Assembly (NCBI GenBank): GCA_902763655.1
Contig: CACWSW010000022.1
Location: forward strand, 1 to 57,469
Reading direction: 5' to 3'
DNA from: an uncultured bacterium
GTDB taxonomy: Bacteria; Verrucomicrobiota; Kiritimatiellia; RFP12; UBA1067
Length of the DNA: 57,469 nt
Positions 193 through 1,321 of this stretch are shown here, in pieces (position 1 is the first letter of the stretch; every line of letters begins with the position of its first letter). The notes under the pieces were generated by a model. It had not been told where the DNA came from and ran no database searches. It saw nothing but the letters and a program-made list of their open reading frames with translations. Position numbers and translations under genes: made by a program.

Positions 193-201
193 TGCTATAA
201 T
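193..201 (+). promoter_or_regulatory. Extended -10 promoter (TG-C-TATAAT) for the small lipoprotein/radical SAM pair
   Basis: TGCTATAAT at 193-201; AGGAGG RBS at 212-217; ATG at 225. Confidence 0.7.
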
Positions 202-224
202 ACGGCCGCACAGGAGGTACAGCC

Positions 225-506
225 ATGAAACTTTCGAAGAAGAACCAGGCCCGGCAGAGGGCCATACGCAAGGCGATCGCAAGCGGGAAGTCGGTAGGCG
301 GACTGCTCGCGGGGGCGTTGGCCCTCGCCACGACAGGCTGCTCCCCCAGACCGTCCCCAGGGCCGATAGGCCGTTTCCCGGATCCCAGCTACGAGGAACG
401 GGCCGGGCGCAAGGCCAACAACGAGAAGCCGAGGCGCGTCCCGATGGGAGATGTCCCTAGGGACATCAAGGACGAAGAGACGCCACCGCCAAAACCTGAC
501 AAGTGA
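225..506 (+). CDS. Small (93 aa) putative lipoprotein / radical SAM-associated peptide
   Basis: Perfect RBS; basic N-region, hydrophobic stretch and lipobox-like ALATTG|C; Pro/charged mature part with PIGRFP and PMGDVP motifs; stop TGA overlaps the next ATG (TGATG). Confidence 0.7.
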   Translation: MKLSKKNQARQRAIRKAIASGKSVGGLLAGALALATTGCSPRPSPGPIGRFPDPSYEERAGRKANNEKPRRVPMGDVPRDIKDEETPPPKPDK

Positions 507-1321
507 TGCGCTTTCCGCGCCACATGACGCTGGAACTCACGGCGAAGTGCAACTTCCGCTGCCCTTACTGCTACTGCCTCTGGCACGAGTTCCCCGAGAT
601 AGCCAAGCCCGAGCTCGACACGGCTGTATGGAAGGCCATTCTCGACAAGTGCGCCGACGACGAGGTCGAGGATATCCTTTTCACCGGCGGCGAAACTCTG
701 CTGCGCTCCGACCTCTTCCAGATACTCTCATACGCGCGCCGCCGCCTGCCGCGCGCCGACCTTTCGCTCTTCACGAACGCCAGCCTTCTCGACGAACCGC
801 TTGTCAAGCGCCTCAAGCGGCGGCACGTCAGAATCGCCACGTCGCTCCAAGGCCTCACCACCTACGGCGCCATGACGGGCACTCGCCGCACATTCCGCCG
901 CCTGCTCGCCATCATCGCGCGCGCCGGCGAACTCCACTGGCCAATCTCCGTCTCGATGACGGTCACTAAAGCCAACGTGCACGAGGCGACCGACATGTTC
1001 GCCGCCGCAGTCCTTTCCGGAGCCGCCTCGATCCTTGTTGGGCCGATGATGGCCGGCGGACGCGCACTCGCCCATCCGGAGCTGATGCTCTCACGCGCGG
1101 AATGGAACGCGACAAAGGACGCGATCCGCGCCCTTCCCGACTGCGGCGTGCCTTTCACGTTCTGCGACGAGTTCTTCTGCGAGTGCCGCAACGACCAGCC
1201 CGCGGCCCATCTCCGCAAGAAGTGGCGCGATCCCTCCCATACGCCATGCCCGGCCGGACGAGACTTTGGCGTCATCGGTCCAGCCGGGCACTTCCGTGCA
1301 TGCTTGCACGCGACTACATGA
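506..1321 (+). CDS. Radical SAM protein with a short (Twitch/half-SPASM-like) C-terminal Cys region
   Basis: CNFRCPYC (CxxxCxxC), FTGGE motif, C-terminal CPAG...GHFRAC. ATG at 506 overlaps the upstream stop; GTG at 503 is an alternative start. Confidence 0.9.
   Translation: MRFPRHMTLELTAKCNFRCPYCYCLWHEFPEIAKPELDTAVWKAILDKCADDEVEDILFTGGETLLRSDLFQILSYARRRLPRADLSLFTNASLLDEPLVKRLKRRHVRIATSLQGLTTYGAMTGTRRTFRRLLAIIARAGELHWPISVSMTVTKANVHEATDMFAAAVLSGAASILVGPMMAGGRALAHPELMLSRAEWNATKDAIRALPDCGVPFTFCDEFFCECRNDQPAAHLRKKWRDPSHTPCPAGRDFGVIGPAGHFRACLHATT

Follow-up and report, generated by a model that had tools for sequence, protein, structure and literature searches.

A lipobox-bearing protein and an overlapping SkfB-like radical SAM gene as a candidate maturation cassette in a rumen Kiritimatiellia bacterium

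What is the substrate of a radical S-adenosylmethionine (SAM) enzyme whose gene starts within the stop codon of a small lipoprotein gene, and could it be the lipoprotein itself? This question is raised by the beginning of contig CACWSW010000022.1 (assembly GCA_902763655.1), which derives from an uncultured rumen bacterium of the Kiritimatiellia. The window, that is, the whole stretch of 57,469 nucleotides that was analysed, opens at the contig end, and 224 nt precede the lipoprotein gene, open reading frame (ORF) A. With moderate confidence, we suggest that ORF A and the radical SAM gene (rSAM) form an autonomous two-gene maturation cassette, the radical-SAM counterpart of the DAG-RiPPs, which are peptides that ribosomes synthesize and that are modified post-translationally (RiPPs), with a diacylglyceryl (DAG) group. 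The principle of a radical SAM maturase with its precursor is known, and a radical SAM version of the RiPP-lipoprotein logic would be so far undescribed.

The initial annotation had described ORF A as a 93-residue protein with a lipobox and a disordered tail carrying PIGRFP and PMGDVP, joined by a TGATG overlap to a CxxxCxxC radical SAM gene, and all of this was confirmed on the sequence. The stop codon TGA of ORF A (504-506) shares one nucleotide with the ATG of rSAM (506-508), and the rSAM product matched Pfam PF04055 (Radical_SAM) at 7.9e-21 with 75 bits, the cutoff being 29.5. The ORF A protein reads MKLSKKNQARQRAIRKAIASGKSVGGLLAGALALATTGC up to the lipobox cleavage side of Cys39 and SPRPSPGPIGRFPDPSYEERAGRKANNEKPRRVPMGDVPRDIKDEETPPPKPDK from there on. 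It consists of a basic helix, a hydrophobic stretch ending in ATTG before the Cys, and a tail rich in Pro and charged residues. The segment AGALALATTGC fits a lipobox pattern of the PROSITE PS51257 type, and Cys39 is the sole Cys of the protein. Codon comparison with the ortholog in the genome G004 confirmed that ORF A is a real gene, under strong purifying selection, and not a shadow ORF of high-GC DNA: within codons 1-78, 15 codons differ synonymously and 2 non-synonymously, and for rSAM and its own G004 ortholog the corresponding counts are 54 and 30. ORF A had no Pfam match and hit none of the NCBIfam families at E<=1. Its homologs formed 88 clusters in a set of 5.8 billion proteins; none of these was functionally named (3 were 'hypothetical protein') and none had a Pfam hit.

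The strongest argument for a cassette is the pairing of the two genes across genomes. Orthologs of rSAM, with 36-89% identity, were confined to metagenome-assembled genomes (MAGs) of Kiritimatiellia and of Lentisphaeria/Victivallales from rumen and gut, apart from two further contigs in Firmicutes-labelled bins. The family is small: of 1.84 billion representatives searched, 93 clusters matched at E<=1e-30. It is also sporadic, being present in 7 of 25 genomes of the genus and in one of 251 genomes drawn evenly from the class, which was the window's own. We searched 51 orthologous loci (4,972 six-frame ORFs) with a profile of the ORF A N-terminus (alignment A2). There were 41 matches. Of these, 40 were rSAM's direct upstream neighbour in the same orientation, and the 41st was the second tandem copy in the locus L063. 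This adjacency count is partly circular because 19 of these sequences had built the profile, and the lack of matches elsewhere is not circular. Among 41 related genomes, strong A2 matches occurred in the carriers of an rSAM ortholog, and the remaining 34 genomes had none; within the genus, the two genes co-occur exactly. In one carrier (G005), the contig ends within the upstream gene, and the match was weak and partial. The initial annotation had expected homologous enzymes to come with an adjacent small ORF and a conserved motif; this expectation held, at 40 of the 51 loci for the ORF and with conservation of the motif.

The 11 loci without an A2 match contain a diverged peptide, a peptide one gene off, an in-frame fusion or a contig edge, and they vary the same pairing instead of being exceptions to it. 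At L050 and L060, the locus is truncated by the end of the contig. In L062, L064 and L065, a gene resembling that of glycerol-3-phosphate dehydrogenase (gpsA) lies between the peptide and rSAM. The peptides of these Lentisphaeria loci (L062:1628-1921, L064:260-571 and L065:1617-1904) have kept the helix, are without a signal peptide and close with an amphipathic tail, (F/L)(R/K)KLFGK. They begin MQLSEEEKQKQNAITDAIKN, which is homologous to the window helix (profile E-values of 0.0065, 0.0098 and 0.06, at the top among 781 ORFs). In L070-L077, small or Zn-ribbon-containing non-secreted proteins abut rSAM, and the small peptides of L070-L074 share a tail of the KKLFGK type. L075 carries an in-frame N-terminal rSAM extension of about 75 residues with LMGRTVP, and the same arrangement recurs in the independent cluster P0224. 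In most orthologous loci, ORF A and rSAM are spaced by -4 to +22 nt (overlap or gap). Clustering of the flanking ORFs of 44 loci yielded no third conserved gene, whether for a protease, a transporter or a protein with a RiPP recognition element (RRE). Immediate adjacency and exact co-occurrence over 36-89% enzyme identity, in unrelated contexts and without a third gene, are what is predicted for a self-sufficient enzyme-substrate pair.

The two contigs in Firmicutes-labelled bins are L060 (Anaerovoracaceae) and L083 (Ruminococcaceae). L060 has a typical family lipoprotein tail and an rSAM ortholog of 53% identity, and for both contigs mis-binning seems likelier than transfer.

Conservation within the partner proteins is confined to a few parts. 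In an alignment of 86 ORF A homologs, islands were formed by residues 1-40, GPIGRFP, N.NE and Gly75, and the linkers and the C-terminus varied freely. The N-terminal helix was the most conserved part among the 86 homologs and also across classes in A2. Most family members start M-K-L-S-K-K-x-x-x-R-Q-R-A-I-x-K-A-x-A-S-G-K and continue with a hydrophobic stretch. A profile of the helix alone picked ORF A uniquely in its genome (E=1e-12, the next match being at 1.1). A strict lipobox was found in 29 of 48 family proteins and IPGC in three more, and a few had a signal of the SPase I type or none. About 17 of the sampled partners (130-230 residues) end in a LysM domain; the two that were checked matched PF01476 at 1e-12 and 2e-10. 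The small peptide partner of the initial annotation is thus upheld as an exported protein, mostly with a lipobox, and not as a free-standing peptide. Because many relatives are longer and end in LysM, the window protein is a short member, without LysM, in a family of envelope lipoproteins that are exported, and not a typical RiPP precursor.

The pattern hydrophobic-Gly-x-hydrophobic-Pro, in which the initial annotation had placed the putative modification sites, was recovered as one of the few conserved islands of the tail. Its Pro and the residue before Gly (mostly Met) vary, and the robust core is G-x-hydrophobic. Of 26 relatives with a lipobox, 22 have the Gly of the first motif at +10 or +11 counted from the Cys, and the motif appears as TMGSYP, TMGRFP, PMGDVP or PVGRFP; the window copy is PIGRFP. 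This first motif is followed by one to five later modules per protein of the form [KP]-P-N-A-x-N-E-x7-9-G-x-hydrophobic-x-x-P (87 aligned instances). In these modules, N-x-x-N-E sits 7-9 residues before the Gly, and close homologs have kept its N and E. This element and the unusually conserved n-region helix within the N-terminal 40 residues are the two features that the initial annotation had not recorded. Many close relatives of ORF A have a third site, [MV]RT.G[IV].P, which is missing from the window copy. The strict motif [MIVLF]-G-x-[MIVLFY]-x0-2-P was counted 34 times among 43 non-redundant upstream proteins, against 4.5 +/- 2.1 in composition-preserving shuffles, and the dipeptide MG 42 times against 8.1 +/- 2.8. 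Since the 43 sequences are mutually related, the enrichment measures conservation and not independent occurrence. Cys is not a constant companion of these motifs. The upstream proteins of L054, L082 and L071 and the extension of L075 are free of Cys and others have none near a motif, and in relatives extra Cys often flank the motifs (MGDVPC, QGNMVC, MGSC).

The enzyme belongs to the radical SAM superfamily, as seen from its CX3CX2C and GGE motifs and from an AlphaFold2 model (pLDDT 90, pTM 0.87) that matched radical SAM structures. In an alignment of 18 orthologs (A1), the invariant positions included C15, C19, C22, C24, W26-H27-E28, G61-G62-E63, C225, C227, C248 and C266; C220 was variable. 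The segment CPYCYCLWHE (window region 575-589) has C24 and W-H-E in 18 of 18 orthologs, and SkfB has Tyr-Ala and no Cys at this place. The C-terminal part ends in C-x12-G-x4-C with an atypical order of Cys, and Pfam SPASM was not detected; four invariant Cys form a single auxiliary site, which points to one auxiliary cluster of a twitch-like kind. An RRE or PqqD-like domain was missing in all 18 aligned orthologs. The window rSAM ORF leaves no room for one, because 14 residues precede its first cluster Cys, and a stop codon lies just upstream. Distant full-length relatives such as P0296 carry N-terminal extensions of about 100 residues, which is consistent with an RRE-bearing ancestry.

In sequence and fold, the enzyme is most like the RiPP maturases SkfB, SuiB, PqqE and CteB. 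A Foldseek search against the PDB placed SkfB (6efn) first (E 7e-14, TMq 0.75, 277 columns, over the whole length), followed by SuiB, PqqE, MoaA and CteB, and EpeE was at rank 35 with TMq 0.62. The family profile searched against PDB sequences gave 1.7e-27 for SkfB and about 1e-12 for PqqE and MoaA, and BtrN was among the weak matches; the 472-residue radical SAM entry 8vpo, which we take to be TigE, matched at 3.4e-6, far more weakly than SkfB. In NCBIfam, no model came near its cutoff, the best partial matches being PqqE, AhbD, MoaA, NirJ and SkfB. Neither the curated models nor the searched full-text literature on Kiritimatiellae, Lentisphaerae or Victivallis with radical SAM gave a description of the family.

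A paralogous radical SAM/SPASM family was noticed in the same genus (L088 in G002:C78, L090 in G019:C36, L091 in G021:C121 and L092 in G017:C214). Its members are about 331 residues long, are 30-32% identical to the window enzyme and have the full SPASM Cys pattern. Each is preceded, with a 4-nt overlap, by a protein of 236-358 residues with a Zn-ribbon and SH3_3 (AASPEPK...CP.CG), and in P0251 the Zn-ribbon/SH3 protein and the paralogous rSAM are fused into one protein of 576 residues. From its sequences, this looks like a separate radical SAM-plus-partner system that is also undescribed.

Among known systems, SkfB shares with the window enzyme a radical SAM core and, as predicted for the latter, a twitch-type domain at the C-terminus that holds one auxiliary cluster, and it modifies a peptide. 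It differs in its N-terminal RRE of about 100 residues, whereas the window enzyme starts at the cluster motif, and the identity is only about 22-25%. The window enzyme further departs from SkfB in its Cys pattern, CxC...C...C ending in C-x12-G-x4-C, in the extra Cys24 and in the lack of a universal Cys donor in the substrate. Assignment to the sactipeptide synthases of the SkfB, AlbA and CteB type fails on the RRE and on a conserved donor Cys in the substrate, both of which are lacking here. The uncharacterised family TIGR04133 (rSAM_w_lipo) is alike in concept: in lineages of the gut and of anaerobes, a radical SAM enzyme has a predicted lipoprotein as its genetic partner. Its members are 350-residue proteins with a full SPASM, compared with 271 residues and a twitch-like end here; the window enzyme reached 42.2 bits against a cutoff of 425, and ORF A matched no NCBIfam model.

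The cyclopropyl synthases TvgB and TigE also act on a hydrophobic residue beside Gly in a short repeated motif. Besides an RRE and a full SPASM, they possess a GYW motif that is diagnostic and ligates auxiliary cluster I, and their repeats are TVGG and TIGSVS (PMC10878394). GYW was found in 0 of the 18 family members, which also lack an RRE, and the residue before Gly is mostly Met in the partner proteins, so that membership of this class is rejected. Spliceases of the PlpX type are similar in acting on a short Gly-containing motif, and protein-sized substrates are known for them. Here, YG is absent from ORF A and present in 7 of 48 family proteins, there is no PlpY-like partner, and no splicease model stood among the best 25 of 84 NCBIfam matches of the enzyme; this class does not fit either. 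The initial annotation had argued from the missing YG that the chemistry must differ from splicing, which is reasonable, because ORF A has no YG and the enzyme falls outside both the splicease and the TIGR04133 models.

The closest parallel in logic is offered by the DAG-RiPPs. For DybA/DybH and NedA, modification in the cytoplasm by an MNIO enzyme, followed by attachment of diacylglyceryl to the lipobox Cys, was shown experimentally (PNAS 2026; PMC13056109). The authors predict the same logic for other enzyme classes, and the term 'radical SAM' is absent from the main text (PMC13056109). Signal peptides of the Sec or lipoprotein type, called 'highly unusual' for RiPPs, likewise occur on bufferins, and preliminary evidence suggests that the recognition sequence includes the bufferin signal peptide (PMC12452194). 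In common with both groups, the cassette has a precursor with a Sec/SPase II signal peptide and lipobox and an adjacent cytoplasmic enzyme, and some precursors are protein-sized. As in those groups, there is no dedicated protease or transporter, and the general lipoprotein pathway would export and lipidate the product and remove the leader. The difference lies in the enzyme and the motif: MNIO (DUF692) iron enzymes act on Cys motifs such as CPACGMG, whereas the cassette has a radical SAM enzyme, motifs that do not depend on Cys and a putative modification. The lipobox signal pattern and the adjacent enzyme without a dedicated protease or exporter are thus present at the cassette, and an MNIO enzyme, which every published DAG-RiPP has, is not.

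Under the cassette model, ORF A would be synthesized as a pre-lipoprotein. The translationally coupled rSAM would bind it while it is still cytoplasmic and unfolded, probably through the N-terminal helix, which is the n-region of the signal peptide. A 5'-deoxyadenosyl radical derived from SAM would then start chemistry at the Gly motifs PIGRFP and ANNE-x7-MGDVP, before export. The general Sec/Lgt/LspA pathway would subsequently export the protein, lipidate Cys39 and remove the signal peptide. The product would be a modified, membrane-anchored and disordered lipopeptide, and in many relatives a lipoprotein that binds peptidoglycan by LysM. The missing protease and transporter genes could be explained in this way, since the general Lgt/LspA pathway would both lipidate the protein and remove the 'leader'.

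As for the chemistry, our best guess is modification at the Gly C-alpha or at a direct neighbour, because Gly is the only invariant residue of the motif. With low confidence, the auxiliary cluster and the fold resembling SkfB, SuiB and PqqE lead us to favour an oxidative two-electron outcome, such as a cross-link or a dehydrogenation at or next to the invariant Gly. Epimerisation is possible, but C24 is the one evident candidate for an H-donor Cys: radical SAM peptide epimerases (EpeE/YydG, PoyD) have a conserved H-atom-donor Cys away from the clusters, and C24, two residues past the cluster motif, is the sole invariant non-cluster Cys of the enzyme. Splicing is unlikely, as ORF A has no YG, and so is cyclopropanation, given the missing GYW motif and the Met that mostly precedes Gly. 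A universal Cys thioether is unlikely as well, since some family members have no Cys at all.

A thioether in the window protein itself would be in line with the classical sactipeptides and ranthipeptides. Here, Cys39 would stay unlipidated and would be linked in an SkfB-like manner, for example to residue 48 before the Gly, 9-10 positions on. SkfB is the closest relative of the enzyme and links Cys4 to Met12, the spacing from Cys to Gly is strikingly constant at +10/+11, and extra Cys often stand beside the motifs in relatives. These points do not outweigh the several members that are Cys-free or have no Cys near the motif, the 29 of 48 proteins in which the Cys belongs to a canonical lipobox behind a standard h-region, and the fact that the window protein has this single Cys alone. 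We consider this explanation very unlikely. It is also unlikely, in our opinion, that ORF A is a partner or adaptor whose cytoplasmic helix, not yet cleaved off or kept as a signal anchor, would bring rSAM to the membrane or regulate it there, with a lipid, an envelope precursor or another protein as the real target. An adaptor would suit the helix being the best conserved part of ORF A, the enzyme being without an RRE, and the fusion in P0251 of the paralog's folded upstream protein to its rSAM, as a partner would be. The signal-less Lentisphaeria versions keep the helix and the amphipathic KKLFGK tail, so that all partner forms look membrane-associated. However, an adaptor role leaves unexplained why the Gly motifs and the N-x-x-N-E modules of an exported, disordered tail are conserved and duplicated. 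Lipoprotein signal peptides are normally cleaved and degraded, and the nearest solved relatives of rSAM are peptide-modifying enzymes.

The two genes might instead be co-expressed and chemically independent, the enzyme having another substrate and ORF A being an envelope lipoprotein needed in the same context. The enzyme-substrate relation is a prediction, the motif copies of the window score weakly against the family module, and compact twitch radical SAM enzymes such as BtrN, itself among the weak matches, act on small molecules. We nevertheless regard independence as improbable: the two genes co-occur exactly and stay direct neighbours across enzymes of 36-89% identity without a third conserved gene, linked genes of a small-molecule pathway are absent, and the tail motifs are conserved and duplicated. 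Several results also weigh against the cassette model. Any modification of ORF A is putative. For an enzyme with neither an RRE nor a partner protein, recognition of the leader is unaccounted for. The AlphaFold2 model of the natural fusion L075 left the extension unstructured and undocked (pLDDT 31-52) and was uninformative on docking. The folded protein upstream of the paralog, which is sometimes fused to that enzyme, shows that 'upstream gene = partner' is possible in this superfamily as well. The motifs are short, and an envelope protein with LysM is an unusual substrate for a radical SAM enzyme. When a hidden Markov model (HMM) of the 25-residue module was searched against 56,738 six-frame ORFs of the window genome, it proved too weak to be specific: ORF A ranked about 40th (E=42) and no further substrates emerged. 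A module HMM built without the small Lentisphaeria peptides was not significant on them (E=0.21 for L074 and worse for L070, L076 and L077). The same model picked the peptide upstream of gpsA in L064 at E=0.019. As the HMM is not significant on those peptides, the pattern N..NE...G read there by eye is at most suggestive.

If the cassette model is right, a signal peptide can double as the leader for a radical SAM enzyme, and radical SAM chemistry reaches the maturation of envelope proteins in gut bacteria of the PVC group. A new peptide modification would then be likely, because no Cys is required and Gly is the sole invariant motif residue. More tentatively, and as something we would not yet expect to hold, the cassette may make the first RiPP-lipoprotein of radical SAM origin. 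It would combine an RRE-less twitch enzyme derived from SkfB, an n-region helix as leader and a Cys-independent modification of Gly motifs (1-5 copies) before Sec export, in envelope proteins of gut PVC bacteria. Chemistry at an invariant Gly with variable flanks would, in that case, be new for peptide-modifying radical SAM enzymes. RiPP-lipoprotein hybrids were shown experimentally only in 2026 and for MNIO enzymes only, and the cassette is a minimal radical SAM candidate. It is unusually easy to test by co-expression, with a 271-residue enzyme free of accessory domains, a 93-residue putative substrate and two candidate sites. The MAG assigned to Victivallis vadensis (L063) carries the system, and this species has a cultured type strain, so that the model might be checked in a native host, provided that the cassette is present in that strain. 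In L063, tandem precursors at 2266-2721 and 2711-2989 precede rSAM; one has LysM and an NQKNE...AGVPAP module, and the other is without LysM.

The positions of the features are collected in Table 1. Directly downstream, fucO (lactaldehyde reductase, 596 bits) lies convergently on the minus strand at 1314-2429 and overlaps the 3' end of rSAM by 8 nt (1314-1321); no terminator-like hairpin was seen between them. Because of this convergent neighbour, ORF A and rSAM make up a two-gene unit.

Table 1. Positions in the window of the features of ORF A and rSAM.
Feature	Position (nt)	Strand	Basis
Extended -10 element TGCTATAAT	195..203	+	Read from sequence; within about 55 nt conserved with the G004 locus
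AGGAGG (Shine-Dalgarno), 7 nt upstream of ORF A	212..217	+	Read from sequence; kept in L032
ORF A, 93-residue pre-lipoprotein, candidate rSAM substrate	225..506	+	Homologs, selection, N-terminal profile
Residues 1-22 (MKLSKKNQARQRAIRKAIASGK), N-terminal helix and n-region, candidate 'leader' for recognition	225..290	+	Conservation
Residues 23-39, hydrophobic h-region with lipobox (Cys39, nt 339-341)	291..341	+	PROSITE-like pattern
Motif 1, P-I-G-R-F-P, Gly49, 10 residues past the lipobox Cys	363..380	+	Conserved island in the 86-sequence alignment
K-A-N-N-E, degenerate copy of the N-x-x-N-E element	411..425	+	Module alignment, 87 instances
Motif 2, P-M-G-D-V-P, Gly75	441..458	+	Sequence, motif enrichment, 86-sequence alignment
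TGATG, ORF A stop over rSAM start, translational coupling	504..508	+	Read from sequence
Radical SAM enzyme, 271 residues, no RRE, twitch-like C-terminus	506..1321	+	Pfam, AlphaFold2, fold match
CX3CX2C (C15, C19, C22; nt 548-571) and invariant C24 in CNFRCPYCYC	548..577	+	Invariant columns of A1
C-terminal four-Cys auxiliary cluster site (C225, C227, C248, C266)	1178..1303	+	Invariant in A1

The initial annotation had also given the pair a promoter of its own, and this is partly confirmed. The consensus promoter scanner called no -35/-10 pair upstream of ORF A; it did not call TGCTATAAT because a -35 is absent. About 55 nt upstream of the ORF A start codon, including this extended -10 and AGGAGG, are conserved with the closest orthologous locus (G004) at 87% identity, and the sequence farther upstream differs. 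It is the conserved extended -10, and nothing else, that speaks for the promoter. DNA of the locus was present in many bovine and sheep gut metagenomes. Metatranscriptome contigs of relatives, which were short, of low depth and 90-99% alike and could include carried-over DNA, cover 345-624 and so span the junction of ORF A and rSAM, which hints at co-transcription of the two genes.

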